From Spirochaetia bacterium (GTDB taxonomy: Bacteria; Spirochaetota; Spirochaetia; DSM-2461), in NCBI GenBank assembly GCA_963668315.1, contig OY764216.1:768001-832000 (forward strand): a stretch of 64,000 nucleotides of DNA. The letters are read 5' to 3'. The notes under the pieces are model-generated. The model ran no database searches and was not told the origin of the DNA. It saw only the letters and a program-made list of their open reading frames with translations. This document shows, one piece after another, positions 5,274 to 27,100 of the stretch. The translations under genes and the position numbers were made by a program. Numbering within the stretch: position 1 is the stretch's first letter; every line of letters starts with the position of its first letter.

Positions 5274-5900
5274 TTAAAGTTTGTAAAGGTCAAACTTCTT
5301 ATCAAATTCCAGACTAACCGGGAGAAGTTCCGTTTTGGATGATGCCACTGTTTCCAGAAAATACCGATGGATCCCCGTGTAGCCGGTCAGTTCCGGATGG
5401 AAACTGGCGGCCAGGCAGTTATTTTGTCGTACCAATACGGGGACTTCTTCATGGCTGGCCATCACGTCCGTATTTTCCCCCAATGAGTGGATGCGAGGGG
5501 CTCGGATGAACAGGGCGGGTACGGTATCTCCTCCCCAGATCAAATCCGTTTCGAAGCTGTCCTTTTGCCGTCCATAGGCGTTACGTGTCACACGGTAATC
5601 CATAGCCGACAGAGTAGGCTGATCGGAATTCTCCACACCCGAGGAGAGCATTATCATACCGGCGCAGGTTCCGAAAACGGGAAGTCCCTCACTGATCAAG
5701 CGGGACAGATCGTCCCACATATCCATTCTCTGCAGAAGACGATACATCACGGTGCTCTCTCCGCCGGGAATAATGAGACAGCTGATGCGGTTAAGTTCCT
5801 GCCGGCATTTTACAAGCAGAGGCTTGTAACCCAGGTTTTTCAAAACACCTTCGTGGGCGGCAAAGCCGCCCTGAAGGGCCAGTATTCCCGGCCTTTCCAT
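5274..5900 (-). CDS. pdxT: PLP synthase glutaminase subunit PdxT
   Basis: GILALQG, IPGGEST, FGTCAGMI, FIRAP, SFHPELT; start overlaps the pdxS stop. Confidence 0.97.
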   Translation of the reverse strand: MERPGILALQGGFAAHEGVLKNLGYKPLLVKCRQELNRISCLIIPGGESTVMYRLLQRMDMWDDLSRLISEGLPVFGTCAGMIMLSSGVENSDQPTLSAMDYRVTRNAYGRQKDSFETDLIWGGDTVPALFIRAPRIHSLGENTDVMASHEEVPVLVRQNNCLAASFHPELTGYTGIHRYFLETVASSKTELLPVSLEFDKKFDLYKL

Positions 5901-6805
5901 TACCAGCCCCGTCCGGCCATACGCTGTTCAGGAAGAAGTTCATCCATACCGATTCCGGTCATGGGAAGCCCCAGATTACGGGAAACCCTGGCCAAAGTCT
6001 CGGGATCCTCATAACGGGTGACCGCTTCGACAATCGCTGCCGCCCGCTTCGCGGGATTCTCCGATTTGAATATGCCCGAACCGACAAAAACCGCCTCTGC
6101 CCCCAGCTGCATCATCAGAGCCGCATCGGCCGGAGTGGCCACCCCGCCGGCGGAGAAATTGGGGACGGGTAATTTTCCTCTGACCGCCACTTCCAGAACA
6201 AGCTCATAGGGCGCGCCCATTTCCTTGGCCACGGTCATAAGGGTTTCCCTGGGAAGAGCCGTAATCCGGGCGATATCCTCCCTGAGGGTTCTCATATGTC
6301 TTACCGCTTCGGATATGTCTCCCGTACCGGCTTCGCCTTTGGTGCGGATCATGGCGGCTCCTTCCCCTATGCGCCTGAGGGCTTCGCCCAGATTCCGGCA
6401 GCCGCAGACGAAGGGAACGGTGAAATCGTCCTTGAGAATATGATAACGGTCATCCGCAGGGGTAAGGACTTCCGACTCGTCGATGAAGTCTATTTCCAGG
6501 GATTCGAGAATACTTGCTTCGGTGAAATGTCCTATCCGGCATTTAGCCATAACCGGTATGGTCACGGCGTTCTGAATCCCGATAATCATCTCGGGATCGG
6601 ACATGCGCGCCACGCCCCCGTCCTTGCGGATATCCGCCGGTACTCTTTCCAGGGCCATGACAGCCGCCGCTCCGGCTTCTTCGGCAATTCGTGCCTGCTC
6701 GGGAGTCACCACGTCCATAATGACGCCTCCCTTCAGCATTTCTGCCAATCCCACTTTACTTTTCCATGTTGCCGTCCGTTTTTCGGACCAGGTCTGTTCG
6801 CTCAT
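5900..6805 (-). CDS. pdxS: PLP synthase lyase subunit PdxS
   Basis: [49 protein letters not shown]-terminal RGW. Confidence 0.98.
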
Positions 6806-6824
6806 CGCGTCCTCCAGCCTTGTA

Positions 6825-7598
6825 TCAACCCAGATTCAGTTTTCTGATTTCCTCCAGACCCAAAAGGACAAGTTCGGGGACGATTTTATCGAATAGATGG
6901 TACTTTTCATAAAGCCCGGCATGTTCACCCGTGGCTATTACGGTGACATTCTGCTCGGCAAAGCATTCGCGCGACAGGCGGTTAATCAGCTCCTTGAGCA
7001 TACCCAAAGTGCCGAAGAACAAGCCGCTTTGAATCCCGCTGACCGTGTTTCTGCCGCAGACTTTGGAGACGGGCTGTATTTCCACCACAGGAAGCCGGGC
7101 CGTACGGTCTGCAAGTGCTTCCATGGCTATATCCAGTCCCGGAATAAGACAGCCTCCCAGATATTCCCGGTCCCTGCTGACGGCGCACAAACTCGTCGCC
7201 GTGCCGAAATCGACAATAATGAGATTATTTCCCGGAGAAAGGCTTAGCGCCGCGGCGGCGTTGGCGATCAGGTCGGCACCCAGCTCTGAGTGGTTGGTGT
7301 ACTTCACCTGCAGTCCGCTTTTCACACCGGCTCGTAAAGTCAAAGCCTGAAGATGAAAGTAGTCCCGGCAGCATCGCTCAATCTCGCCGTTCAGCTCGGG
7401 AACGACGGAACAGAAGACAAATGCCTCCAGATCTTCTTTTTGGAAATTTTTCACAGCAAGCCATTGCAGGAGAAAGAGTCCTATCTCGTCTGCTGTCGAG
7501 CGGGGGGAGGTTTCTTTATGGAATGTTCCTAATACCTTGCCCTTGTGAATCATTCCGCCGAAAAGACGGGAACTTCCCACATCCAATGCCAAAGTCAT
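6825..7598 (-). CDS. coaX: Type III pantothenate kinase
   Basis: [48 protein letters not shown]. Confidence 0.9.
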
Positions 7599-7825: not shown

Positions 7826-10800
7826 ATGAGAATAATAATAAAAGGAATTCTAGCGCTTCTTTTCCTGGCTCTGCTATCCGGATGTCCGGACGGTATGATC
7901 GGCTTGGGAGATAAGGTTGATCTGGATCCCCCTTCTTTAGTCATAGGCAGTTACGAGGACGGAACGCCCATCTCCAACGGAGATTACGTGCGGGGAACGA
8001 TCCTTCTGTCCGGTTCCGTCTCAGACGATACCGGCGTCAAATCGGTGAGAATCTCCGTGGAAGGGGCGGATGCCTCCATAGATGCGACCCTTGGCGGCGA
8101 CGGCACTTCCTGGAGCGCCCCTGTCGATACGGCCCGCTACGGGGACGGGGAGAAGGAAATTCTCCTTACCGTCACCGATAAAGCACCCGAACCCCGGACA
8201 TATGAGACCCGCCTTCTTCTCTTTTTTGATAATACCCCGCCGGTCGTGCTGGTTAAGGAACCGTCGGGATACGAATCCACCGATTTTACGGACAGCATTA
8301 TTTCTCTCAAGGGGGAAGCTTCCGATCCCTTCCGGGTCAGAAGGGTCGATGTCAGCCTGGAGGGGGGATCGGGCAGTCTGGGGGATGTGGAAGGAACCAA
8401 TACCTGGAACTGCACCTTTGAGAGTCCCGGGACCGGATCCTATATCTTTAGAGTTTCGGCGGAGGATTACGCGGGAAACGTGAGCACTCATTTTTATCAT
8501 TACGATGATATTCTTACGGCCGACGGCAATGTGTATATGACGCCCGAGGAGATTTACGACGTGGAAAATGGGGTGGCTGGGAAAAATATAACCCCAAGCG
8601 GACTTAAGGCCCTCGAGCTGGACGAAATGACACTTTCGATCAGTATGGAGCTGGATAATCCGGATATAACCATCAGCAATCCCGATCCCTCAGCTCTTGT
8701 GGTGGATAACGTTATGTCCGGTTCCGCCAAATTTCTCGGCTCCGTTTCCGATGACGACGGGGTGGATACCTCTACGCTGGAAATCCGCTTTGACAACGGT
8801 TTCTGGGAGCCTGTAGGCCGTGTGAACGGTTCGGGAAGATTCGTGACCTGGACCCATACCAGGACTTATACTTCTTCGGGGGACCACTATTTTCAGATTC
8901 GTGTTGACGATATCTACGGGGTGTCTCAGCTTTCTCCCCTCGTGAATTTCCGCATTAACGTGGATGCCGCCAAGGTGGATATCGATTTTCCGGCCATGAG
9001 CCAGTATCTGAACGTCTCCGATTACACGATCACCGGCACAGCTCTGGATACGGGAGGCGGCGTCACAGATCTGCAGATAAGCCTGGACGAGGGCTCGACC
9101 TGGAACGAAGTGGACACAACGCCCTCCCTTCCCAGCGAAAGCGTCAGCTGGTCCTACCGTGTCGAGGGAGGGGAGCAAGGCTCTATTCCCGTAAAGATGC
9201 GGGCCAGCGATGATTCGGGGGGCACCTGGTCCTATACGAATGTGCAGTACACCGTGGATACGACCGCACCCATCACTTCTTTTGTCTCCCCCGCCGGCGG
9301 CAGTTATGTCAATGGCGATGTGACCTTGCGCGGCAGCTGCACCGATAACAATCAGCTGGCGTCGGTCCGTCTGAAGATCGGGGACGATCCGGCGGAGCCA
9401 TGGATAGATATTGATGAGCAGGATCTGTACAGCTGGACCTATACCTTTGCTTCGGATGATTACGAAAACGGGACCGCCGGCGACGAAACGGCGCCGGGGA
9501 GCGGAGTTTACGCCGTTAACTGTTATATTGAGGCGACGGACAAAGCCGGAAACGTAAAGGTTACGCCTTCCGGTGCCTTTGTACTGAATATCGATAATGA
9601 GCTCGATAAGCCTTCGGTCACGGTGATTTCTCCCCGGTCCGGAGACAGTGTGGGCGGTTCGGTTCTCCTGACGGGAACGTCCTATGACGATGACGGAGAG
9701 GTATACGGCGTTTATGTGCAGCTGGACGTTAACACTCCCCCGGGAGGGGAGCCCGATTTCGCCGATAAAGTAAGCCTGAGCGGAGGCGGTATTGATTTTG
9801 ACGGATCGGGAAGTTCCTCACCCGTGACGTTGCTGGACGAGACGAAAGCCTACCTGGCAGAGGGCTCCTCTCCCTGGAGCGTTTCGCTGAACAGTTCCGG
9901 TGAGCTTTACAGCACCGAAGCGGGGCACAGCGGGGATATTTACGCCCGGATCTGGGCCGTGGACAAGGACGGGGGCGCAGACAGCGTGGCCGGAGATGTG
10001 CAGACGCTCCATTTTCGCTTTGACGATACGATTCCGGTTATCGGGGAATTGACGCCTTCCACCGAATCCTACGTAAAGGATACCTTTACCATAGAAGGAA
10101 ATCTGTCCGACGAGACGCAGATTAAGCATCTGGAAGTCAGTTACGACGGGGGAACTTCCTATCATTATATTATAAAGGACGGCACCGTTCAGCCGGGTTA
10201 CTCGGGAGCCGGATCCGCTGTGAACACCGATTATGCCATCAGCCTGCCGGTCAATACGGCTTCCATTCCCGATGTCGGCGGCGTCACGAGCGATGATATC
10301 CTGATTCGCTTCAAAGCGACGGATAATACGAACTATCAATCACAGGAATCGCTGGTTTATTATGTGGACAACAATCTGCCCACGGCTTGGATGACTCAGG
10401 ATACCTCGGATATTTACGGAAGCGGAGACAATGGGCTATTTACCGGTTTCGCCGATGATGAGGGAACGGTCAGCGGCGTGGAAAGAGTTGTTCTTTACAT
10501 AGAGAAGGACGGTTTCTTCTACGATCAGAAGGACGGAACAGCCGCCGCGCTGACGACGGAAGAGATTAATGGCAGTGATACTCCCTTTCCTTCCGATCCG
10601 GATTATCTCATGACCATCGATTCCACCGTGGAAACCCTATCGGGAAGCAATTCCGACGGGGACGGACTGGAGGAGGAGCTGAACGTCGGCTCTTTCTATG
10701 AGTGGAAGGCCCGCATTAATTCGACGAATATTCCGGACGGAGTCGCCACGCTTCACTATGTGGCTTACGACCGGGCGCAGAACAGGGTACACGGCAGTCA

Positions 10801-13366: not shown

Positions 13367-16300
13367 ATGAATAAAATAGGATACGCGTTTTTCGTCCTGA
13401 TACTGGGGGCGACCGCCCTTTTGGGTGCGGGCGGTAAGGAAGAACCGGAATACAATAGAGCAAACGGGCTGGAATCCTGGACATACAGTTACGACCTTTC
13501 CAGCCAAGAAGAAGGGCTTTATAACATTATCGTAGAGGGAGAGGACCGGGCCGGTAACGTGAGCCAGGCCGGGCCTTTTAACCTGTATATCGACGGGGAA
13601 TCGGATCTGCCGCAGACGGCTGTGGTGAGCCCCGTCGCGGGCAGTCTGATCAAGGACAACCTGAACGTAGTGGGATCCGCCAGCGACGACGACGGAATCG
13701 CCCTGGTGGAGATAAGCCTGGACGGCGGGGCCTACGCGGCTTGCGAGGGAACGGAATTCTGGGATTACTATATTCCCCTGGGCAATTTGACGGACGGTCA
13801 CCATGAGATAAGCCTGCGGGCTACCGACGTAAACGGTCTGACCGGACCGGAGAATACCGTCTCCTTCGGGGTGGATAAGGACATTCCCCGCATTAGAATC
13901 GATTCCCCGGAAAAGGGAGCCTTTCTAAAAGATACGGTTCTGCTCTCGGGCACAGTGGAAGACAGAAGCGGCCTCTCCGATCTTTACATCACACACCGGG
14001 AAAGCGGTGTAACCGACAGGGTTGGTCTCAAATTCGATAAAGAGGCGGGCCTGTATCGTTTTGCCTACAAAATCAGCACAAAGGATTTCGAAGAGGGCGT
14101 TCATAACCTCACCCTGGCCACAACGGATGTTTCCGGCTTTCGGGGGGAAGATAACTTTCTCTTTTTTGCCGATAATACCCCGCCCGAACTGGAAATACTG
14201 ACTCCCGGCGAAGACGAGCGGGTCAACGGTGAGGTGCTGATCGGCGGTTTCGTCAGGGACGACGTGGGCGTGAAAAGAATTTTCCTCCGCCTCGCGGACG
14301 GGGAGGAAAGGGAAGCGGCAGTTCTGCCGGGAAGTTCCTACTGGCAGGTAAATCTATCTCTGGAAGGAATCCCCTACGGTAGCCGGACGGTGGAAATAGT
14401 CGCCGAGGATAACAGCGGCAACGTCTCTGAGGAGAAAATTAAAATTCTCCATGACGAAAAGAGCGATCTGCCCGTACTTTCCCTTTTCGGGCCTGAGCGG
14501 ACCGGGGTGGAGGAAGAGACGGTTCAGCTGGGACTCATCGCCCGGGACGATGACGGAATCCGCGCTATAGAGTATTCCCTGGACGGGGAAAGTCCCCGGA
14601 GGGAAATGGCCTGCGAAGGCACCGTTCTGGAACTGACCGGACTGGAACCGGGTCGGCATAAGCTGGTGGCCCGGGCCGTTGATACCAATGATAAATTGGG
14701 TGAGACGGAGCAGTTGAGCTTTACTGTGCCCAAACTGTCTCAGAAAAATCCCCTGGCGCCCGTGGAGGAGATTCGTTTTTCCGCCGGAGGCCCTCTTCTG
14801 CTTACCGAATCGGGCATACTCGTCGAAGGTACCGCTCCCGGCCGGGGAAATACCCTGTCCTATGCTCTTCTGAACGGGGAAGATCCGGTTTACGAGAATC
14901 TGGCCAGGGATGGCGACGGCGGTTTTCGCCTGGAAATTCCGGCGGAGAATTTGACTGACGGTCAGTACGCCCTGGCGTTCCGCTCCCAGTCTGAAGAGGG
15001 AAATTTCTCGGAAAACCTTATCCTGATAAGCCGGGACAGCCAGCCTCCCGAACTTACCTTGCTTTCTCCCGGTCCGGAAGAGATTCTGAACGGGAAGATC
15101 CTGCTGGCCGGTAAGGTACAGGATCAAAGCGGTGATGTCCTGGTTGAAATCAGCGACGACGGGGAAAATTATCTTCCCGTGGAAGGGGGAAAGAGCTTTT
15201 CCCATGAGATCGACTTGAATCGCTATGAAGGGGATCCCTCCCTGACTTTACGGCTGAGCGATTCCCGGGGCCTTTCCCGGCTCGTGCCCCTCTCCATCGG
15301 TCAGAATGCCGATGCAGACATACCGCGGGTAATTCTGGATTACCCCCTGGCCGATTCCCTGGTAAACGGTCCGGTAGGTTTGAACGGTACCGCTCTGGAT
15401 GATGATGGTATAGGCGCCGTTCTTTATCGCGTTGGCGAGGAGGAGTGGCATAGAACAGAGGGAAGCTACTCTTTTTCCCTGCCCTTTGATCCGGGCGACC
15501 GGCCCGATGGAGACTTTACGGTTTATCTCAAATGCGAGGATCTCAACGGACGGGAGAGCAGCGTGGTGGAGAGAACTTTCTCCGTGAGCCGTAAATCCCC
15601 GGAAATTATGATCGATTCACCTGTTCCGGAAGACATTCTCAAAGGGGTGGGAGTTCTGCAGGGGACGGCGAAGGATGACAACGGCATCGCCGGGGTTTAT
15701 GTCTCTACCGATAACGGGCTGAGTTACCAAAAGGCCCGGGGAGAGGAGAACTGGGTCTATTCCCTGGATACGACCGTGCTTCCCGACGGGCCCCTTTCTC
15801 TGTTTATCAAAGCGGTTGACCGGGCGGGTATGGAATCCTACTTTACCAGTCTTATCAATATAGACAACCGGGCTCCCTCCATTAAACTGGATTTTCCCCG
15901 GGGGAATGACGAAATATTCCGCCGCTTTACCATCGAAGGGGTCGTTTCCGATCTGAATAGCCTGGAGGAAGTGAATTATACTCTGGCCTCCCGGGATGAT
16001 CCGCAGGAGGGTTCGGAATGGGCATACTCCCTTCTCAAGGGAGAGGAAAGGACCCTTCGCATCAATCGGACCGTCGATCTTTCCGAACGCGAATCGGGCT
16101 GGTATATCCTCAGTCTCACCGCTGTGGACCGGGCGGGGAACCGAAGCCGCATAAGCCGCGACATCTATCTGAACGGTGAAGCCGACAGAGCCGGCGTATC
16201 CCTGCTATACCCACTGGAAGGGGCCGGACAGAGCGGTGCCGTTCTCATAGAGGGGACTCTTGAGAAAGGCGGGGATTCCGGTGGGGTTGATCTTTTTCTG

Positions 16301-17386
16301 GACGGGGAGTCGACGGGCACGGCACTTGCCGGAGAAGACGGATTTTTCCATTTCACTCTGGACGGGGAGACCCTGACCCGGGGAGATCATGTTCTTCTGG
16401 CCCGGAGCGGGAATTCCCAGACGGAGGAGAGGCATTTCACCTATGACGGCGAAGGGCCGTGGATCTCTTTCGAAGGCTACGAATCGGGCGATTTCCTGAC
16501 CGAAAGGACTTTTATTACCGGTAGAACGGGATACGGAGATGTTCCCCTGGACCGTATCGAATACAGTTTTGACAAGGGGCGCTCCTTCAGAATACTCCCG
16601 GGAGGGAAGGTTTCCCGCAGGAAAGGAGAGGATGGGGCATCATGGAAAGTCCGTATCGAAACGGAGTCCTATCCCGACGGGGATCTTCCGGTAATCGCCA
16701 AGGCCTACTACGGGGACGGAAGCCAGGCCACGGCGGAGATCTTGCTGAAGGTGGATAAAACGGCGCCGCAGATAACTATCAACGCTCCCTCCGAAGGAGA
16801 AAGTTTTAACGATGTCCTCACTGTCAGCGGAGATACCGAGGACAGCAACGGCATGAGCGGAGTTGCCCTACTGCTCAGGGAAGGTGACAAGAGCGGATAC
16901 GAACTGCCCTCCTTTGTGCAGGGGCTTTTCCTTGACTTCCAGGTCCTCGGGGCCACCTTCGGGGAACAGGGCGTGGGACTGACCTTCTTTGAGGACAATG
17001 TAAAGCTTCAGGTTCAGGCGGGTATTGCCCCTCCGGGCCGATTCTCGGGGCTTGTCCTGGGCGGTAAGCTGCTGGCCAATGTGGCGACGATTCCCTACAG
17101 CTACGTTCTAGGTCCGGATTGGGCTGATTTTTCCACATCCCTGGCGGTGGGAGCGAATTTCTCCTACTTTACCATGTCCGGAGAGTCTCTGGGATTCTCC
17201 TCCGACGGGGTGGTGCTGGGCTCCATACTGTTTCAGTGGGAGCTGATTAAATTTGAGACTGACCGCTGGTCTGTTCTTAATGATTACTCCCTCTATGTGG
17301 AGGAAAGTCTGTGGTTCATCTCATCGGACGTGCAAGCCGGTCTGGTGCCCCGGTTCAGCGTAGGCTGCCGGGTGGGAATCTTCTAG
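13367..17386 (+). CDS. Secreted Ig-like repeat protein (about 12 modules) with putative C-terminal outer-membrane beta-barrel
   Basis: Signal peptide ending LLGA-GGKEE. Repeated DxxxP / GxAxDDxG / AxDxAGN modules. Last ~160 aa are amphipathic beta-strands ending in Phe (FSVGCRVGIF). GAGGAG RBS, 15 nt after the previous gene. Confidence 0.85.
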   Translation: MNKIGYAFFVLILGATALLGAGGKEEPEYNRANGLESWTYSYDLSSQEEGLYNIIVEGEDRAGNVSQAGPFNLYIDGESDLPQTAVVSPVAGSLIKDNLNVVGSASDDDGIALVEISLDGGAYAACEGTEFWDYYIPLGNLTDGHHEISLRATDVNGLTGPENTVSFGVDKDIPRIRIDSPEKGAFLKDTVLLSGTVEDRSGLSDLYITHRESGVTDRVGLKFDKEAGLYRFAYKISTKDFEEGVHNLTLATTDVSGFRGEDNFLFFADNTPPELEILTPGEDERVNGEVLIGGFVRDDVGVKRIFLRLADGEEREAAVLPGSSYWQVNLSLEGIPYGSRTVEIVAEDNSGNVSEEKIKILHDEKSDLPVLSLFGPERTGVEEETVQLGLIARDDDGIRAIEYSLDGESPRREMACEGTVLELTGLEPGRHKLVARAVDTNDKLGETEQLSFTVPKLSQKNPLAPVEEIRFSAGGPLLLTESGILVEGTAPGRGNTLSYALLNGEDPVYENLARDGDGGFRLEIPAENLTDGQYALAFRSQSEEGNFSENLILISRDSQPPELTLLSPGPEEILNGKILLAGKVQDQSGDVLVEISDDGENYLPVEGGKSFSHEIDLNRYEGDPSLTLRLSDSRGLSRLVPLSIGQNADADIPRVILDYPLADSLVNGPVGLNGTALDDDGIGAVLYRVGEEEWHRTEGSYSFSLPFDPGDRPDGDFTVYLKCEDLNGRESSVVERTFSVSRKSPEIMIDSPVPEDILKGVGVLQGTAKDDNGIAGVYVSTDNGLSYQKARGEENWVYSLDTTVLPDGPLSLFIKAVDRAGMESYFTSLINIDNRAPSIKLDFPRGNDEIFRRFTIEGVVSDLNSLEEVNYTLASRDDPQEGSEWAYSLLKGEERTLRINRTVDLSERESGWYILSLTAVDRAGNRSRISRDIYLNGEADRAGVSLLYPLEGAGQSGAVLIEGTLEKGGDSGGVDLFLDGESTGTALAGEDGFFHFTLDGETLTRGDHVLLARSGNSQTEERHFTYDGEGPWISFEGYESGDFLTERTFITGRTGYGDVPLDRIEYSFDKGRSFRILPGGKVSRRKGEDGASWKVRIETESYPDGDLPVIAKAYYGDGSQATAEILLKVDKTAPQITINAPSEGESFNDVLTVSGDTEDSNGMSGVALLLREGDKSGYELPSFVQGLFLDFQVLGATFGEQGVGLTFFEDNVKLQVQAGIAPPGRFSGLVLGGKLLANVATIPYSYVLGPDWADFSTSLAVGANFSYFTMSGESLGFSSDGVVLGSILFQWELIKFETDRWSVLNDYSLYVEESLWFISSDVQAGLVPRFSVGCRVGIF

Positions 17387-18861
17387 GAGGTAAAGCTCCT
17401 CAGAAATACCCGAATCGTGCCAAGCAGCCCCCCGATTCTTCCCGGGCCGAAAACGAAGGACATGACGCTCTTCAGGCCCTTGTAGACGGCGGGTGAGTGG
17501 GGGTACCACCACATTTGCCGGGGGAGGGAGCCGAGGGAATCGTTAATAACGGTCTTGGTCTGTGTCACTTCGTCGAGGCCGGGTGTGCCGTGGGAGCGGC
17601 CCAGGGATGACTGTTTGTAGCCGCCCCAGGGGGTTTCGGCCAGGCCGTGGGACATGAGATGATCGTTGACGGTGATGGCTCCCGCCTGGAGCTGTGAAGC
17701 GCATTGACGGGCCTTGCGGCGGTCGGAGGTCCATACCGAAGCGGTCAGGCCCAGATGGGAGCTGTTGGCCAGGGAGATGGCTTCGCGGCAATCCTCTACA
17801 CGGCAAAGGGCTATAACGGGGCCGAAGGTTTCTTCATCCATGGTCAGCATGCCGGGTTTGACTTTTTCCAGGAGAGTGGCGGGATAGAAAAATCCTTCTG
17901 CCGAATCGATCAAGTGAGACTGGGCCGTTATCTCAGCGCCTTTGGAAAGGGCATCGGCCACATGTGCCTTTACCGTTTCCCGCTGTTTCTCCGTCGTCAG
18001 AGAACCCAGATCGGAATTCTCTCCATTCCAGCTTCCCTGAGTCAGGGCTTTGGTTTTGTCCCGGAGGAGCGAAGCAAACTCGTCATACACTTCGGATACG
18101 ACGAAAATCCGTTCCACGCCGCCGCAGGATTGGCCGCAGTTTGAATAGCCGGCCCAGCAGGCGCCGTTGGCCGCCCGTTCCAGATTGGCATCGGCCAGGA
18201 CGATCATGGCGTCGTTACCTCCCAGCTCCAGGCTGAGGGGAAGAAGGCGGGGCGCCGCCAGTTTGGCCAGTTCTATTCCCACCGGATTGGAGCCGGTGAA
18301 AAAGAGCTTATCGATTCCCGAGGCAATGAAAGTAGGTCCGGCTTCCGATCCTGCCATATCCACCAGGGAAAAAAGATTTTCCGGCAGGTCCAGAGAATCG
18401 AAAAGACTCTTGATCTCTTCTCCCACATCCCGACACTGCCGGGCCACTTTGAGAATACAGGCATTACCCGCGATGAGGGCCATGAGAACTTCCTGGAAGG
18501 GGATGGAAAAGGGATAATTCCAGGGACTGATGATGCCGATAACACCCCAGGGTTCCCGATAAAGGCGGGATGATTTGTTGAAGAAAAGAAGGGATCCGCC
18601 TCGCAAGCGCCTGGGTTTCAGATAACGGGGTGCCTGGCGGCAGTAGAAATTCACCGAGAGAGAACAGGGAAGCACTTCGGCGCTCAGGGCATCAATAAGG
18701 GTTTTTCCGGTGGTACGGCTTATGGTTTGCGACAGCCGGTCGGCCCTTTCTGAAATCAGTTTGCCCAGAGGCTTGAGCCTATGAGCCCGCTCTTTCAGGG
18801 ACAGATCCTGCCAGATCTTTTGTGCTTCCTTCGCTTGATTGACGGTACTATTCAAATTCAT
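17383..18861 (-). CDS. Aldehyde dehydrogenase family protein
   Basis: ISPWNYP, FTGS, LELGGND, GQSC catalytic Cys, EETFGP, PWGGYKQS. Confidence 0.95.
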   Translation of the reverse strand: MNLNSTVNQAKEAQKIWQDLSLKERAHRLKPLGKLISERADRLSQTISRTTGKTLIDALSAEVLPCSLSVNFYCRQAPRYLKPRRLRGGSLLFFNKSSRLYREPWGVIGIISPWNYPFSIPFQEVLMALIAGNACILKVARQCRDVGEEIKSLFDSLDLPENLFSLVDMAGSEAGPTFIASGIDKLFFTGSNPVGIELAKLAAPRLLPLSLELGGNDAMIVLADANLERAANGACWAGYSNCGQSCGGVERIFVVSEVYDEFASLLRDKTKALTQGSWNGENSDLGSLTTEKQRETVKAHVADALSKGAEITAQSHLIDSAEGFFYPATLLEKVKPGMLTMDEETFGPVIALCRVEDCREAISLANSSHLGLTASVWTSDRRKARQCASQLQAGAITVNDHLMSHGLAETPWGGYKQSSLGRSHGTPGLDEVTQTKTVINDSLGSLPRQMWWYPHSPAVYKGLKSVMSFVFGPGRIGGLLGTIRVFLRSFTS

Positions 18862-19814: not shown

Positions 19815-20735
19815 TTACCCTATGGCGGCTTCGGGGTTGAGGGAGTTATTGGGGAGAATGGCAGAGGATTTCCGGGTTTGGCGAGAATATTCGAACCAGC
19901 CCTTGAGGCGGCCCCAAGCCTGGCAGTAGTGGCTCCAGGCGCGGCAAGGTTTGAGGGTTATGAGGAGGAAAGATCCCTTGGCGGCATGGATGAGGGAGTA
20001 GAAAGACAGCTGGAACAGATTATAGCCGTTTTTTCTGAGGATGTAGCCCATGCCCAGGCCGTAGCCGTAGCGGCGGGAGCACTCCTTTTTGTCATATCGG
20101 CCGCGGTAGACGTCGTGGTAGATATTGATCCGGGGATCGTAGATAACTTTATGGCCTTTGGCGACGATGCGGAGGACCAGGTCGGTTTCTTCGCCGGAGA
20201 TATACCGGGCGGCGCCCAGTCCCAGATCTTCATCAAAATGACCCGCCCCATTGACGGAGTCCTTAAGGAGGAAGATACCGGAAGAGTTGGTTGTCATGCA
20301 GGCGTTATGTTTGTTCACGGCGGTTTTATGGTTTTTAATCATGAATCCGCCGGCGGAAAAACGGCCCTGTTCATCGGTTACCAGACCGGTGAGACCCTTG
20401 AGAGAAGGATCGGTCCGGAAGCGGTTTTTTACCTGGAGCAGGGTATCCGGCTGATACCAGCAGTCGTCATCGGGGAAAGCGACGATTTGACCGGAGGCGT
20501 GTTTCAATCCGAAATTACGGGCGGCGGAGAGGCCGAGGTTCCTTTTTACGTGCAGATAAACAAGATTAAGATCGGCCAGATGGTCGAGAAGGGAGGTTTT
20601 TAAAGTGTCATGGGGGTTCTGATCGACCAGAATAATCTCAAAATCCTGATACGTCTGTTCCTTAAGGGATGATAACAATTTGAGATGATGATTCATTCTG
20701 TTTATCGTCGCAATGACAAGTGAGAAATAAGGCAA
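19815..20735 (-). CDS. Glycosyltransferase family 2 (paralog A)
   Basis: FEIILVDQN, GLSAARNFGL, FPDDDCWY, SGEETDLVLR; TTG start after GGAGA. Confidence 0.9.
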   Translation of the reverse strand: MPYFSLVIATINRMNHHLKLLSSLKEQTYQDFEIILVDQNPHDTLKTSLLDHLADLNLVYLHVKRNLGLSAARNFGLKHASGQIVAFPDDDCWYQPDTLLQVKNRFRTDPSLKGLTGLVTDEQGRFSAGGFMIKNHKTAVNKHNACMTTNSSGIFLLKDSVNGAGHFDEDLGLGAARYISGEETDLVLRIVAKGHKVIYDPRINIYHDVYRGRYDKKECSRRYGYGLGMGYILRKNGYNLFQLSFYSLIHAAKGSFLLITLKPCRAWSHYCQAWGRLKGWFEYSRQTRKSSAILPNNSLNPEAAIG

Positions 20736-20787
20736 GCCTGGTCTCCCTGGTTGTTTGAGATTAATTATAATTCAAGATCGGGGAGAA

Positions 20788-20819
20788 AGGAAGAGGAAAA
20801 ATTATTTTTTCCTCTTCCT
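20788..20819 (-). terminator. Hairpin between the two GT2 paralogs
   Basis: 14-bp perfect inverted repeat AGGAAGAGGAAAAA / TTTTTCCTCTTCCT with a 4-nt loop, starting about 19 nt after the stop of 20838-21701. Confidence 0.65.
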
Positions 20820-20837
20820 ATAGAGACTTGGAAGGGA

Positions 20838-21701
20838 TCAATGTTTTTTAGGGTATTCGAAGTAGCCGCGGAGGCGTCCCAGGGCCTGGGCGAAATGGAA
20901 GAAGGCGCGTTTAGGCTGGAGGGAGAGAAGCATGTAGGTTCCTTTAGCCCAGTGGATAGCGGAGTAGAAGAAGAGGGAAAAAATGGTGTAGCCGTTTTTT
21001 CGAAGGACATAGCCCATTCCCAGGCCGTAGCCGTAGCCTCTTTGACGTTCGGCTTTATCGTAGGTTCCGCAGTATTTTTTGTGGTAGATGTTGATATCGG
21101 AGTAATACTTGATGGTGTATTTATGGATGTGAATACGCAGTACCAGATCGGTTTCTTCACCGGAGATGTACCGTTCCGTTCCCAGACCGACGGCTTCATC
21201 GAATAGACCTACCTTTTCCAGTACCTCTTTACGGATGAATACGGCGGAGGAGTTGGAAGTCCACCAGGCGTTGCGGTGAGATACATTGGCCTGTTTGCTT
21301 TTAAGCATATAGCCGCCGGCGGAGTAGCTGCCGTCCACATCGGTGACCAGACCGGTGATGCACTGGGTTTCGGGATTTTTCTGAAAGTATTTCTGCACCA
21401 GCTGGAGAGAATTGGGCTGGTACCAGCAATCGTCGTCGGGGAAAGCCACTATTTCGCCGGAAGCATGGCCAAGACCATAGTTTCGGGCGGCGGACAGACC
21501 CATATTTTGTTTAACATGCAGATAGATGAGGTTAAAGTCCTGCAGGTCTGCGGTCAGAGTCTTTTTAAGATTGTCATGGACATTCTGGTCGACAATAATA
21601 ATTTCGAAATCTTGTAAGTATTGCTCTTTAAGGGATTTAAGGAGGTTAATATGGTGTTCCAATCTGTTTATTGTCGCTATGATGAGCGAGAAATAGGGCA
21701 A
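20838..21701 (-). CDS. Glycosyltransferase family 2 (paralog B)
   Basis: Same motifs as paralog A and colinear with it; TTG start after AGGAG. Confidence 0.9.
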   Translation of the reverse strand: MPYFSLIIATINRLEHHINLLKSLKEQYLQDFEIIIVDQNVHDNLKKTLTADLQDFNLIYLHVKQNMGLSAARNYGLGHASGEIVAFPDDDCWYQPNSLQLVQKYFQKNPETQCITGLVTDVDGSYSAGGYMLKSKQANVSHRNAWWTSNSSAVFIRKEVLEKVGLFDEAVGLGTERYISGEETDLVLRIHIHKYTIKYYSDINIYHKKYCGTYDKAERQRGYGYGLGMGYVLRKNGYTIFSLFFYSAIHWAKGTYMLLSLQPKRAFFHFAQALGRLRGYFEYPKKH

Positions 21702-21962
21702 TATTGCGGACTCTCCTGTTTTTTACCTTGCTTATTATAGCATTGGGGAAGGAAAAATAAAAGGTTGGGAGTTTTTTTTTGAGTGGGAAGGCTCCCGCTG
21801 CGCGGGCCGGGGACACGTGGTTTATTTTCGGTAAAATCCGTGTTTTGAAACATGAGCTGATAGATGAGTAGGAAGCTCGTGTGGACGTTTGACGATTCTT
21901 TCCTGCCGGTATCATTGTGGGTATAAATGAATTAGGGACATTAATCGGAAATTCTGGATTAA

Positions 21963-23372
21963 CTAAAACTTCCAGAAAAGCGGAATGAAATAGAGGGAAA
22001 CGATAATGGTAATTACATTCAGGGGCAGGCCGATTTTCAAAAAGTCCCGGAATTTGTAATTTCCGATACCTTTGACAATCAGGTTGGTCTGATAACCTAT
22101 GGGGGTTGAGAAACTGGCCGAGGCGGCGATGGCGATGGCGATAAAAAAAGGACGGGGGGAAACGTTAAGCAGAGCGGACGTTTCTATGGCGATGGGGAAC
22201 ATGAGAGCCGCTGACCAGATAGAAATCCTGGGAATTTTTCCAGCGGGTGGTAAAGCGCTGAGTCGTTAACAGGATCAGATTGTCTCCGGGTCGTAAATGA
22301 TGTCTCCTATTTTCCCGTTTATGCGGGAGCCGTTACGGTGGACGGCCAGTACGGCTGCCCGGTAGGTGGCGCGGAAGTTAAACTCGCTTATTGTCTGGCC
22401 CAGACCTGGAAAACGGGGAGAAACGACGACTTCCACAAGATTTTTTGTAATGCTATGGAAGTCTTTACTGAACTCTTTTTCTTCCACGAAATAGAGGCCG
22501 GGGAAGCTTTTTAAATCATCTATACTGTCTATGTTTCCAGAAAAGATGAGCCGGTCGTCTCCTAGAAGAATCTCATCCTTATTTACATTTTTAATAGAAT
22601 AATTATCCCGTTCGATGGCGGTTAGGTAGACTCCTTTCAGCTCTCTCAAACCGGCGGCAAAAACCGATTTGCGGCATAGAGGACTCGTAGGATCCAGCTG
22701 TATTTCTATGAGATATTCCCTAAGGTTTTCTTTTCTGGCTTCATCGATGGGGGGATTTTCCGGGAGCAGATGATAGCCGATGAAAGCGGTGTAAGCTGTT
22801 CCCAGGATGGCAATGGGAAAGCCGACTCTAAAAAGTTCAAACATACCCAGCCCCTTGTAGCCGTTCTGGAGCATCAGGCCGTGAACAACCAGATTGGTCG
22901 ATGTGCCTATGAGCGTACACATTCCCCCGAAGATGGTGGCGTAGGAGAGGGGAATCAAGAATTTTCCCGGGTTCAGATTCAGTCTTGTGGCCCAGCTTTT
23001 TATGGCGGGTGCCAAAATAACCACTACGGGGGTATTATTGATAAAGGCGGAAAGAAAAGTGGCGGGAAGCATGATGCGGCCCAGCATGAAGACGGGGCGG
23101 AACTGGCGGGAAGGGAGAAAGTAGTGGGTGACCAGATTAAGGCCCCCGGTCTGCCTGATCCCTTCGCTGATAAGAAACAGCAGGGCCACGGTCATCATGC
23201 CCTTGTTGCTGAAGCCGGAAAGAAATTCATATATATCGATATATCCAAAAAAATAGAAAAGGCTTAATACACTTAACAGGATGAGCCCGGGGCGAAGGAA
23301 TTCATTAATAAGGGCTGTTATCATAAGGATGACGAGAAAGATAGAGAAATAGGCGCTGAAACAAGGTATCAT
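21963..23372 (-). pseudogene. SLC13-family permease with TrkA-C domains (probable sulfate/anion symporter), frameshifted and internally deleted
   Basis: N part: SAFINNTPVV, GGMCTLIGTSTNLVV, TrkA-C domains. C part: AASASFSTPIGYQTN. A 1-nt loss at 22295-22297 shifts the frame, and DFYLVS is fused to AALMFPIA at about 22210. Confidence 0.85.
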
Positions 23373-23479
23373 ATTTTTCTTTTATATAATTGACTTATAA
23401 AATATTCAAGATAGATCGTTTTTTTGAGATTGAGAAATGGCCTATGAATTCAGAAAGAACTATGCTAGTCTTCTGTACC

Positions 23480-24268
23480 ATGAGAGGGAAAAATCTCGAA
23501 ATAGCAAAAGAAGCCGCCCTTGATGCGGGTCAGAAAATACGGGAGATTTATAATTCTTCCAATTTTGAAATAGAATTTAAATCTGATAATTCACCCCTGA
23601 CAAAAGCTGACAAGGCTTCCCATGAAGTCATAATTTCCTATCTGAATGATACCCCCTATCCTGTTTTGTCCGAAGAGGGAAAAAGCATTTCCTATGAAGA
23701 AAGATCCCGATGGAGTACCTATTGGCTGATAGATCCTCTGGACGGAACAAAGGAATTTATAAAGCGAAACGGAGAATTTACGGTTAATATTGCCCTGATA
23801 GAACAGGGAAAGCCTGTTCTGGGTGTGGTTTACATTCCCGTTACAGATGTCCTTTACTGGGGTTCTGAAGGAGATGGGGCTTTTAAGAGGGTAAAAGCGG
23901 GAAAACCAGTTTCATTGCCGGAAGAAAGAGATAATGGAATATTTACAGTTATCGCCAGCCGATCCCATCTTTCCGAGGAGACTCAGCAGTTTATCGATAA
24001 GCTGGAAGAGCTGCATCCCGGTTTAGAGTGCCAGAGTTCGGGCAGTTCCTTAAAGTTATGCCGCGTGGCGGAAGGTTCGGCCGATGTCTATCCCCGTTTC
24101 GCCCCTACCATGGAGTGGGATACGGCGGCGGCCGACGGGGTCTGCCGTGCCGCCGGCTGTTATGTATTTAATGTAGAATCCAAAAATCTCCTGGATTATA
24201 ATAAGGAAAACCTGTTAAATCCCTGGTTTCTTGTTACCCGCGATTCGCAAATGAAGGATCTTTTATGA
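23480..24268 (+). CDS. cysQ: 3'(2'),5'-bisphosphate nucleotidase CysQ
   Basis: SPLTKAD, LSEE, WLIDPLDGTKEF, SRSH, GSSLKLC, TMEWDTAA. Start uncertain; ATG 23480 preferred over 23390. Confidence 0.93.
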   Translation: MRGKNLEIAKEAALDAGQKIREIYNSSNFEIEFKSDNSPLTKADKASHEVIISYLNDTPYPVLSEEGKSISYEERSRWSTYWLIDPLDGTKEFIKRNGEFTVNIALIEQGKPVLGVVYIPVTDVLYWGSEGDGAFKRVKAGKPVSLPEERDNGIFTVIASRSHLSEETQQFIDKLEELHPGLECQSSGSSLKLCRVAEGSADVYPRFAPTMEWDTAAADGVCRAAGCYVFNVESKNLLDYNKENLLNPWFLVTRDSQMKDLL

Positions 24269-25173
24269 ATAATTACACCTTAAATCACCTCAAACAGCTG
24301 GAAAATGAAGCCATATATGTTTTAAGAGAAGTGGCCGCCCAGTTTGAGAAACCGGCCATGCTCTTTTCCGGCGGAAAGGACTCCATCTGTATGGCGTGGC
24401 TGGCCCGGAAAGCCTTTCATCCCGGCAAGATCCCCTTTCCCATGCTTCATGTGGATACGGGGCATAATTTTCAGGAAACCCTGAATTACCGGGATAAATT
24501 TCTGGATGAGATAGGAGCCACTCTTATCGTCCGAACCGTACAGGATTCCATTGACAAGGGCCGGGTCGTGGAAGAGAAGGGTCCCAAGGCCAGCCGTAAC
24601 GGACTGCAGACGGTGACGTTGCTGGACGCGCTTAAGGAGTTCAAATTCACCTGTGCCATGGGCGGCGCCCGTCGGGACGAGGAAAAAGCCCGGGCCAAGG
24701 AGCGCTTCTTCAGTTTCCGTGACTCCTTCGGTCAGTGGGATCCTAAAAATCAGCGGCCAGAGCTATGGAATATCTTTAATGCTCAGCACAATATGGGCGA
24801 GCATTTTCGTGCTTTCCCCATCAGTAATTGGACGGAGCTGGACGTGTGGCAGTATATCGCCATGGAAGAGATTCCCATGCCTTCCCTCTATTTCAGTCAT
24901 GAAAGAGATATCATTAGAAGAGACGGAATTATTCTGGCTCATATTCCCGGGCTTACCGATCCGTTGGATGATGAAAAAATCGAGCCCATGCATGTGCGCT
25001 GCAGGACTATAGGTGATATTACCTGTACCGGTTTGACCGTTTCCCCCGCTGCGACAATTCGGGACATAGTCAACGAAGTGGCATATACCCGTACCACAGA
25101 AAGGGGCGGCAGAGCCGATGACAAGCGCAGCGAAGCGGCGATGGAAGACAGAAAGAAACAGGGCTACTTCTAA
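24265..25173 (+). CDS. cysD: Sulfate adenylyltransferase subunit 2
   Basis: LFSGGKDS, GGARRDEEKARAKER, WDPKNQRPELW, MEDRKKQGYF. Confidence 0.97.
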   Translation: MNNYTLNHLKQLENEAIYVLREVAAQFEKPAMLFSGGKDSICMAWLARKAFHPGKIPFPMLHVDTGHNFQETLNYRDKFLDEIGATLIVRTVQDSIDKGRVVEEKGPKASRNGLQTVTLLDALKEFKFTCAMGGARRDEEKARAKERFFSFRDSFGQWDPKNQRPELWNIFNAQHNMGEHFRAFPISNWTELDVWQYIAMEEIPMPSLYFSHERDIIRRDGIILAHIPGLTDPLDDEKIEPMHVRCRTIGDITCTGLTVSPAATIRDIVNEVAYTRTTERGGRADDKRSEAAMEDRKKQGYF

Positions 25174-25180
25174 GGAGAGA

Positions 25181-27100
25181 ATGATGAGCACTATTATGGA
25201 TAATCAGGAAATAGAAGAGTTTAACGAAGAAGCCTATCTGAATATGGAGCTGTTACGGTTTACAACAGCGGGAAGCGTGGACGACGGTAAAAGTACCCTT
25301 ATCGGCCGGTTGCTTTATGATTCCAAGGCCATTTTTCAGGATCAGATGGAACAGTTGGAGCAGGCCAGCGCCTTACGCGGTGAAGAAGAAGTCAATCTGG
25401 CATTGTTAACAGACGGCTTACGGGCCGAAAGGGAGCAGGGTATTACCATAGACGTGGCTTACCGCTATTTCTCCACTCCTAAAAGAAAATTTATCATCGC
25501 CGACACTCCTGGTCACGAGCAATATACACGCAATATGGTGACAGGGGCCTCCACGGCTGATTTGGCAATCATATTGATTGATGCCCGTCTTGGCGTTCTG
25601 CCTCAGAGTCGACGCCATGGGATTATCGCCAGCCTTTTGGGAATTCCCCATGTGATCGTGGCGGTCAACAAGATGGATCTGGTGAATTACGATCGAAAAA
25701 CCTATGAGAAGATAGTTGAAGAATATCGTGAATTCAGTCAGAAGCTTAATATTCACGATATTACCTTTATTCCTATTTCCGCTCTCGTGGGAGATAACGT
25801 GGTGGATGCCGGTGATAATATGCCTTGGTATGACGGCCCGACCGTCATGTATCAGCTGGAGAACGCATCTATTTCGGCTGACCGGAATCTGGTGGATTTT
25901 CGTTTTCCCGTGCAGTATGTCCTGCGCCCCCATCTGAATTTTCGGGGATTTTCCGGACGTATTTCCAGCGGTTCCATTAAACCGGGTGAACCGGTAACGA
26001 TACTTCCTTCCATGAAGACTTCCACCGTAAAGGAGATTGTTACCTATGACGGTAACCGGGATGAAGCTTTTCAAGGGGAAAGCGTTACACTGACGTTGGA
26101 TGACGAGATCGATATCAGCCGGGGTGACATGATCGTCCGTAGTCATAACTTACCCGATGTAACCACTCGCTTCCAGGCGACTATCTGCTGGATGGATGAT
26201 GACCAGTCTCTGAGTTTAGCGACCGGTTACAATCTGCAATGCGGCAGCCGGATGGTCAAGGCATATGTCAGGACTCTTGATTATCGGCTGGATATCAATA
26301 CTTTGCATCGTCAGGATGCGGATAAGCTTTCTTTGAATGAGATAGGTCGTGTGGAAATTGAAACGGCCATGCCCTTGCCTCTGGATCCCTATGATCAGAA
26401 TCGGGAAACGGGAAGCTTTATATTGATTGATCCGGCATCTAATCAGACAGTGGCGGCCGGGATGGTACGAAAAGCCTTAAAAAATGCTCCGGCTCCTGAG
26501 CTGATGACCCAATCTTCAACGAATGTTCGCTGGGAGAAGCTTAATGTGACCCGGGAGAACAGAGAAGCCCGCCAGGGGCATAAGGCCCATTGTCTGTGGT
26601 TCACCGGCCTTTCCGGATCGGGTAAAAGTACTATCGCCAAGGAATTGGAAAAGAACCTCTTTGAAGAGGGTAAGCGGGTTTACGTTCTGGACGGGGATAA
26701 TATCCGCCATGGTTTGAACGGGGATCTGGGTTTTTCGGCTAATGACAGGATAGAGAATATCCGTCGAATAGGAGAAGTGGCCCGGCTCATGTACGATGCC
26801 GGATTTATTGTGCTTTGTTCCTTTATCTCGCCCATGAAGGCTATGAGGGACTTTGTGAAGGGATTGTTTCCAGCAGGAGCCTTTACCGAAGTCTATGTGA
26901 AGGCCGATTTGGATACCTGTAAATCCAGGGATCCGAAAGGATTGTATAAGAAGGCTTTGGCTGGGGAGATCCCCGATTTCACGGGTATAAGCAGTCCCTA
27001 TGAGGAACCGGAATCGGCGGAACTGGTTTTGGATACAATGGGGGAAATTATTGAAACAACAGCAATGAAGGCAATTAATTATATTAAACCATTACTATAG
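25181..27100 (+). CDS. cysNC: Bifunctional sulfate adenylyltransferase subunit 1 / APS kinase
   Basis: GSVDDGKST, DTPGHEQYTRNM, NKMD, then WFTGLSGSGKST, LDGDNIRHGL, RDPKGLY. ATG 25181 follows AAGGAG. Confidence 0.97.
   Translation: MMSTIMDNQEIEEFNEEAYLNMELLRFTTAGSVDDGKSTLIGRLLYDSKAIFQDQMEQLEQASALRGEEEVNLALLTDGLRAEREQGITIDVAYRYFSTPKRKFIIADTPGHEQYTRNMVTGASTADLAIILIDARLGVLPQSRRHGIIASLLGIPHVIVAVNKMDLVNYDRKTYEKIVEEYREFSQKLNIHDITFIPISALVGDNVVDAGDNMPWYDGPTVMYQLENASISADRNLVDFRFPVQYVLRPHLNFRGFSGRISSGSIKPGEPVTILPSMKTSTVKEIVTYDGNRDEAFQGESVTLTLDDEIDISRGDMIVRSHNLPDVTTRFQATICWMDDDQSLSLATGYNLQCGSRMVKAYVRTLDYRLDINTLHRQDADKLSLNEIGRVEIETAMPLPLDPYDQNRETGSFILIDPASNQTVAAGMVRKALKNAPAPELMTQSSTNVRWEKLNVTRENREARQGHKAHCLWFTGLSGSGKSTIAKELEKNLFEEGKRVYVLDGDNIRHGLNGDLGFSANDRIENIRRIGEVARLMYDAGFIVLCSFISPMKAMRDFVKGLFPAGAFTEVYVKADLDTCKSRDPKGLYKKALAGEIPDFTGISSPYEEPESAELVLDTMGEIIETTAMKAINYIKPLL

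Follow-up and report, generated by a model that had tools for sequence, protein, structure and literature searches.

We analysed a 64,000-nucleotide stretch of a Spirochaetia bacterium genome (assembly GCA_963668315.1, contig OY764216.1, positions 768,001 to 832,000 of the forward strand; hereafter the window) and describe a pair of genes within it. The first gene encodes a predicted lipoprotein, the second a protein that combines an array of immunoglobulin-like (Ig) repeats with a C-terminal beta-barrel segment, and whose first and last repeats appear to be complementary halves of one domain. The open reading frame of the second gene (13367-17386, forward strand, 1339 amino acids (aa)), here called the barrel gene, starts 15 bases past the stop codon of its partner and is preceded by a run resembling a ribosome-binding site (GAGAGGAG). 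Promoter and terminator scans remained at about the level of shuffled sequence. A public contig covers the two genes with no sequence difference, but may itself be the origin of the window.

The Ig repeats of the barrel protein are detectable with profiles only. A plain BLAST self-comparison of the single protein sequence detects no internal repeats and a PDB search with it yields 0 matches; the profile of a 43-sequence family gives 10 matches, including fragments of SiiE (2yn3), Lap (6xi3) and Bap (7dm0). Among Pfam families, Big_7 (158.9 bits) and Big_13 (93 bits) match above the Pfam cut-off, and Big_3_3 matches as well. The profile-based layout consists of a signal peptide, the second half of a repeat, 11 whole repeats (D1-D11), the first half of a repeat, and a C-terminal part of 166 aa (Table 1). 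This amounts to 11 whole domains and one split domain, in agreement with the count of about 12 given in an earlier sequence-only reading of the same DNA. That reading had also placed the two half repeats at residues 29-76 and 1129-1173 and a complete reference repeat at residues 740-833, the last lying within D8; all three segments are recovered at these positions. Its claim that the mature protein opens with a second half is borne out by Big_13, which on residues 31-76 covers only the profile positions 57-101 of 102.

Table 1. Features of the lipoprotein gene and the barrel gene (positions are those of the window).
Feature	Position	Strand	Remarks
Partner lipoprotein, 1841 aa	7826..13351	+	Ig stalk (Big_7, Big_13); 600-aa C-terminal head without known family
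Lipidated Cys20 and family motif C-x(2-8)-GLG-x-x-VD-x-x-x-P	7883..7933	+	Cys assigned from lipobox-like signal
Signal peptide	13367..13429	+	approximately residues 1-21; cleavage site placed by eye
N-terminal half-domain	13451..13594	+	residues 29-76; second half of Ig repeat
D1-D3, whole repeats, conserved head	13595..14455	+	residues 77-363
D4-D6	14456..15310	+	residues 364-648; module gain/loss among homologues between D4 and D6
D7-D9	15311..16180	+	residues 649-938; side-on couplings at D7-D8; D9 closest to both halves
D10-D11, divergent	16181..16750	+	residues 939-1128
C-terminal half-domain	16751..16885	+	residues 1129-1173; first half of Ig repeat; N1148, invariant R1171
Link from half-domain to barrel strand 1, fixed length	16886..16921	+	residues 1174-1185; D1174 co-varies with N72
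Predicted eight-stranded beta-barrel, terminal Phe	16922..17386	+	stop codon included; no Pfam, NCBIfam or PDB sequence match

The two halves, when joined, correspond to a full repeat from end to end, as the sequence-only reading had proposed on the basis of a single repeat. The joined half profiles align with 9 of the 11 whole repeats over 88-94 columns and with the other two over 79 columns; the alignment with repeat 6 spans 93 columns (probability 98.9). The whole repeats fall into three classes that recur with a period of three (residual similarity: +24 at ring offset 3, +26 at offset 6, negative elsewhere), and the joined halves, as well as each half singly, find their best match in D9, which belongs to the class expected at that position. 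Core residues are conserved in both halves. The possibility that downstream residues complete the last module was rejected: for residues 1174-1225 none of the 11 repeats gives a match (probability no higher than 1.3), consistent with the last repeat before the barrel being a first half only.

A mean-field coupling analysis was carried out on 196 paired sequences, and then on 213 with repeats 6-8 as controls. The pair N72-D1174, which connects the N-terminal half with the residue directly after the C-terminal half, is the second-strongest coupling of all pairs (z 13.2, 213 paired sequences). The residues found at these two positions are N/D (156 sequences), D/S (27), D/G (6) and D/D (2), and of the acid changes at the two sites, 13 and 15 in number, 8 share a branch (424 branches). 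The five best coupling partners of N1148 in the C-terminal half all belong to a putative calcium site of repeat 1 (S79, D80 and D107-D109). The whole-repeat control behaves in the same way, N575 of repeat 6 being coupled to four acidic residues of repeat 7. Since the couplings of N1148 mirror those between whole neighbours, the C-terminal half behaves as though it belonged to the domain ahead of repeat 1. Conserved, co-varying clusters of Asp and Asn occur at the junctions split-D1, D6-D7 and D2-D3 and are predicted calcium sites; in SiiE, inter-domain calcium sites are located at the interfaces of consecutive domains, as stated in PMC5466336. A lineage-wide loss of the calcium site as the cause of the N1148 couplings was mostly rejected (joint changes with N1148 occur on 6 branches for D80 and on 2 for D651).

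A third line of evidence makes use of 30 generic intra-repeat contacts, learned from 811 internal repeats. Between the two halves these contacts reach a mean z of 0.78, compared to 1.50 for a whole repeat and -0.12, 0.39 and -0.06 for wrong partners. A register slide of two residues retains 0.57 and row-shuffled controls give 0.22-0.35, so that the enrichment on its own is a moderate test; likewise, the preference for D9 is blurred by D8, which matches both halves almost as well. These two observations weaken the case to some extent. We nevertheless consider it very probable that the two halves share one Ig fold, as had been suggested before, given the agreement of conservation, covariation and repeat phase. 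The opposite view, namely that the halves never meet and that each is either a leftover or is completed by barrel turns, by the lipoprotein or by some other protein, appears highly improbable. Some couplings that link the halves to turns of the barrel do reach z 5-8, which is near the noise of unrelated pairs. The N72-D1174 and N1148-repeat 1 couplings speak against halves that stay apart, as does the lack of Ig character past residue 1173. Among 88 partner lipoproteins none has a strong match to a half-domain (3 have weak ones at their C-termini), and the conserved cores of both halves disagree with leftovers.

The split is maintained throughout the family. A word search retrieved 56 proteins, the named close ones being Spirochaetales, and a HMMER search with the last 211 residues found 267 representatives, the best 150 of which were listed. 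Among 80 genome loci 79 are labelled as spirochaetes and one as an uncultured bacterium; Gracilinema caldarium and Treponema parvum are among the named members. Across a sample of the phylum, matches occur in 70 of 401 genomes, including 44 of 55 in f2, the largest positive family; the families f5 (0/16), f24 (0/89) and f29 (0/34) have none. Within the order of the window, 18 of 31 genomes carry a barrel gene. Barrel-bearing proteins were examined for both halves (191 proteins, 52 of which were left out of the count as N-truncated or other). An intact-looking head is present in 139, and all but one of these (138) have both halves, the N-terminal one immediately ahead of repeat 1 and the C-terminal one close to the end of the protein; the lone exception resembles a fragment that begins mid-array. 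That protein aside, homologues that retain one half only, a case that would refute the sequence-only reading, were not encountered among the intact-headed proteins, and the covariation between the halves that it anticipated was found. No first half stands ahead of the N-terminal half in any of the 139. The N-terminal half is also present in 20 of 20 further genomic copies that were fetched, and in 186 of 187 cases the barrel segment follows immediately on the C-terminal half.

The order of the repeats is likewise kept: the head (half, D1, D2, D3) in 193 and the tail (D7-D11, half, barrel) in 184 of 196 homologues, with size varying between D4 and D6. The length of the array changes in steps of approximately 197 aa (R 0.44, 99 representatives). 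A rule of even module numbers was tried and dropped, as the odd/even count of 182 of 216 falls to 113-116 of 216 depending on the assumed module length. Insertions of two modules explain the length steps equally well, and the pattern is kept as an observation only. At C1:885786-901903 (locus L002) the same genome harbors a second barrel gene (1556 aa), followed by a lipoprotein of 3781 aa with the GLG motif, i.e. in reversed gene order. Tandem pairs of barrel genes occur at L108:5702-14044 and L110:821-9315. In a distant clade (P0049; L150:2869-9144; L151:2179-8319) a leader of 130-250 aa, coiled-coil-like in P0049, is inserted between the signal peptide and the N-terminal half.

The C-terminal segment is predicted to form a small barrel. 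A coupling analysis of 389 sequences yields an antiparallel ladder of eight strands, with weaker pairs between strands 8 and 1 (L1187-G1337, Q1192-S1331). Couplings across the lumen (D1190-Y1310, Q1217-N1264, K1234-E1312, K1213-E1292) connect conserved polar residues and fit a narrow, plugged barrel, so that a plugged anchor rather than a channel is the best reading of these patterns. The barrel as an oligomeric protein channel was rejected, as the cross-lumen couplings argue for a closed narrow barrel. A PDB search with the barrel profile returned 0 matches at E 10, and none of 29 members matches a barrel family in Pfam or NCBIfam. In the Atlas comparison unnamed clusters (0.94) and PagL (0.93) resemble the barrel, but with 109 of 256 features shared this is a lead only. 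Two proteins, P0108 (389 aa) and P0259 (387 aa), consist of a signal peptide and two tandem barrels without Ig repeats; in P0155 the same barrel stands behind an LpoB/CsgG-like domain (weak Pfam matches).

Length variation of the barrel is concentrated after strands 3, 5 and 7 (standard deviations 5.6, 3.1 and 2.2), whereas the link between half-domain and strand 1 measures 15 residues in 196 of 196 sequences. All variable loops lie opposite to the side that holds the C-terminus and the invariant link, and a terminal Phe is found in 78% of the family barrels. In outer-membrane barrels the C-terminus and the short turns are usually periplasmic. The Ig array is therefore predicted to be periplasmic, and from the barrel topology we hold it likely that it sits on the periplasmic face of the outer membrane. 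An array outside the cell, forming a looped adhesin or a coat that leaves through the barrel or next to it in the manner of an autotransporter passenger, would account for the resemblance of the repeats to fragments of adhesins that act outside the cell (SiiE, 2yn3; Lap, 6xi3; Bap, 7dm0) and for the putative calcium motifs, and surface-exposed Ig-repeat proteins are known from Leptospira (Lig; PMC12183334). We judge it improbable: the eight-stranded barrel has its variable loops on one face and both the link and its C-terminus on the other, its lumen is occupied by conserved polar pairs, the invariant link of 15 residues is too short to cross the membrane, and the order of head and tail repeats is conserved, unlike in adhesin stalks.

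With respect to the order of its parts, the split domain is best read from these alignments as circularly permuted: the array begins with its second half and ends with its first half. Such an array has no free end, since the split domain connects repeat 11 to repeat 1. Provided that the halves share a fold, closure within one chain is favoured over pairing between chains. Several observations are in line with closure. Among 138 barrel matches of up to 735 aa there are 0 whole short forms (135 are fragment-like, two are double barrels, and one is another fusion). The shortest form, of 921 aa and 7 domains, carries a 25-residue filler in place of five repeats; it is a single-member cluster and could be an assembly product. 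A cap or half-only protein is absent in the same genome and among the 88 partner lipoproteins. Finally, side-on couplings are found at D7-D8 (z up to 9.0) and are weak at D1-D2, which makes a bend at the D7-D8 junction probable; four bent units of three repeats would close a square. A two-armed hairpin (D11-D10, split-D9, D1-D8, D2-D7, D3-D6, D4-D5) was also considered and is not supported, as among 36 head-by-tail domain pairs top z values of 4.4-6.7 occur in predicted and unpredicted pairs alike.

The alternative is that the N-terminal half of each subunit completes the C-terminal half of the next, giving either an open filament or lattice beneath the outer membrane, in which barrels recur after every 12 or more domains, or a small closed oligomer such as a domain-swapped dimer or trimer. 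All of the covariation fits pairing within and between chains equally well. A ring of 7-12 domains needs bends, with clear support at D7-D8 only, in an array of a kind that in SiiE forms nearly straight rods with tilts of 15-30 degrees (PMC5466336). Straight rods joined between subunits would require no bends. The N-terminal half would also be exported long before its own C-terminal half, the two-barrel proteins P0108 and P0259 suggest that barrels can sit side by side, and strand-exchange polymers reinforced by calcium exist (PMC12518558). On the other hand, the conserved neighbours do not include a cap, tip or chaperone gene, no short whole form is seen although a polymer needs no minimum length, and both the filler in the shortest form and the D7-D8 bend speak against a polymer. 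On balance we regard pairing between chains as unlikely.

The partner lipoprotein is the sole widely conserved neighbour of the barrel gene (62 loci). In 44 of 61 loci a member of its family, which itself seems to be undescribed, is encoded no more than two genes away from the barrel gene, on either side of it, and in 33 the two genes are direct neighbours; in 13 of 20 further loci the partner gene starts inside the fetched 20 kb. Within the order of the window a match covering the full motif is present in 17 of the 18 barrel-bearing genomes, the eighteenth being in 480 contigs, and none of the 13 barrel-less genomes has any match. In the phylum sample, among the matches listed, a match covering the motif occurs in 54 of 58 barrel-bearing genomes of the same class and in no barrel-less genome of that class; in other classes 21 genomes match the partner profile without a barrel match, mostly over the Ig part. 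We note that these counts are somewhat flattered, as the partner profile was partly built from the same genomes and weakly matches the repeats of the barrel protein itself.

Many genomes combine one barrel gene with several lipoproteins that share the GLG motif, range from about 760 to at least 5700 aa and differ in their heads; the paralogues are often in tandem. The genome of the window has two barrel genes and two partner lipoproteins, arranged as two pairs. A PDB search with the partner's head gave 0 matches, and Pfam names no head domain in 13 + 6 partner lipoproteins beyond Ig-type and weak repeat matches. Several lipoproteins per barrel gene correspond to a pattern of machine and cargo, in which binding is a prediction. 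At eight loci (L060, L065, L075, L081, L108, L110, L099, L102) a protein of 330-420 aa with one N-terminal hydrophobic stretch is encoded just upstream of the barrel gene, and between barrel gene and lipoprotein where the latter is seen; it may constitute a third component in some clades.

Our overall reading, to which we assign a probability of about 0.5, is that of a closed periplasmic ring of Ig domains, stiffened by calcium, on an outer-membrane barrel, serving as a dock or cradle for the neighbouring lipoproteins. Both proteins would be exported by Sec and the barrel would insert into the outer membrane. Next to the barrel link, the N-terminal half would then join the C-terminal half; calcium would fasten the resulting split domain to repeat 1, so that the ring closes beneath the membrane, with barrel and signal peptide both leaving the split domain at the cut loop. 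The ring would consist of four three-repeat units with a bend in each, with 12 domains here and approximately 7-24 in homologues. The ring, or the conserved periplasmic turns of the barrel, might recognise the motif and the first domain of the lipoprotein, which would either be held at the outer membrane or be passed to another route for surface display. That the ring physically works on the lipoprotein seems somewhat probable, and that the lipoprotein ends up on the cell surface has about even chances. The most specific version, a spirochaete-specific two-component route in which the ring recognises the GLG motif and cradles giant lipoproteins for surface delivery or anchoring, is tentative and less likely than not.

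Several points weigh against the overall reading. A periplasm offers little room for lipoproteins of 1500-5700 aa, and a plugged barrel would be unable to pass them. Kin are not independent in any of the family and linkage counts, and the approximately 40 sequence pairs of barrel protein and lipoprotein are too few for a coupling analysis between the two. A purely internal function, with the two proteins bracing the envelope between the outer membrane and the inner membrane or wall and nothing displayed or exported, fits the periplasmic topology, the plugged barrel, the coiled-coil-like leader of 130-250 aa in one clade (P0049, L150, L151) and the placement of the same barrel behind an LpoB/CsgG-like domain in P0155. 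We consider such a brace rather unlikely. The barrel gene occurs patchily, 13 of 31 genomes of the order being without it, several of them in one to four contigs; lipoproteins of varied lengths and heads beside one barrel gene resemble cargo rather than a fixed strut; and the conserved GLG motif adjoins the lipid, not the far end.

The architecture as such is real and conserved, and apparently undescribed. Full-text searches, whose scope did not extend to most subscription papers or to any supplements (e.g. treponemal proteomes), found no description of the family or of the architecture, in line with the sequence-only reading, which knew of none. Current database labels are 'Ig-like', 'hypothetical', 'BNR' and 'neuraminidase'. 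If correct, the reading implies that ordinary Ig domains can be assembled into a ring, or an anchored filament, in a new manner, and the permuted split domain would be ready-made for protein design. According to bioRxiv 10.1101/2022.12.21.521298, little is known of how spirochaete lipoproteins reach the surface, and the gene pair provides a candidate machine, cargo and cargo motif for this process.

Upstream, on the reverse strand (5274-7598), three genes resemble PdxT and PdxS (a PLP synthase pair) and a type III pantothenate kinase. Downstream, a gene on the reverse strand (17383-18861), presumably an aldehyde dehydrogenase, overlaps the stop of the barrel gene by four bases with its end. 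The region 19815-27100 holds two similar genes that we take to be glycosyltransferases, presumed cysQ, cysD and cysNC genes, and a presumed SLC13-like transporter that is apparently cut short at 365 aa.

Among known systems, the BIg adhesins SiiE, Lap and Bap are closest to the array in repeat fold and sequence, and the acidic inter-domain site resembles type I of SiiE. These adhesins form open-ended linear rods, and type I-secreted giants such as SiiE and LapA have a C-terminal secretion signal in place of a Sec signal. The barrel protein, in contrast, carries a Sec-type signal, ends in a barrel and would have its two ends joined by a permuted split domain, and type I secretion genes are not among the conserved neighbours of its loci. 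Autotransporters, including the inverse ones (intimin, invasin), have a twelve-stranded barrel with a linker through the pore. They share with the present protein the combination of a barrel and a chain of Ig repeats in one polypeptide; in contrast, the barrel described here has eight strands, a plugged lumen and no membrane-crossing linker, and its chain is predicted to be periplasmic. In OmpA, a small barrel serves as a membrane anchor. Barrels of the OmpA, OmpW and PagL type are alike in having eight antiparallel strands and a C-terminal aromatic residue. Neither OmpA-type barrels nor Msp/Tpr show a sequence match to the barrel, and the periplasmic part differs in being a predicted closed Ig array of 1100-2300 aa. 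A precedent among spirochaetes is Treponema Msp, whose C-terminal barrel is preceded by a periplasmic part at the N-terminus (PMC12183334). T-Mac is a different protein, of 647 aa (PMC11833123).

The genetic tie between an outer-membrane protein and a lipoprotein cargo recalls Slam and the RcsF-OMP complexes. Slam consists of TPR repeats and a 14-stranded barrel, and its gene lies beside that of its lipoprotein cargo. The barrel protein has neither a TPR domain nor a 14-stranded barrel, and its role in export is a proposal. Both Slam and the RcsF-OMP complexes are named in bioRxiv 10.1101/2022.12.21.521298.

As for the split domain itself, chaperone-usher pili, type V pili and archaeal cannulae likewise complete a beta-sandwich with a distant piece of chain. 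In strand-exchange polymers one strand is donated between subunits, with calcium at the joint (PMC12518558). In these donor-strand systems a single strand fills the groove of a neighbour, whereas here halves of 48 and 45 residues come from two ends. The analogy to strand complementation in pili drawn by the sequence-only reading is accordingly a loose one: completion by a distant piece stands, whereas the exchange of a single strand does not (half a domain, about four strands, is involved), and the 62 loci include no chaperone, usher, tip or cap genes among their conserved neighbours. A single domain assembled from two distant parts of one chain is also found in MG6 of complement C3 and in the stalk locks of Gram-positive pilins and antigen I/II. 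These discontinuous domains mostly retain the natural strand order around an insertion and form a hairpin, whereas the split domain of the barrel protein would have a permuted order and give rise to an endless array.

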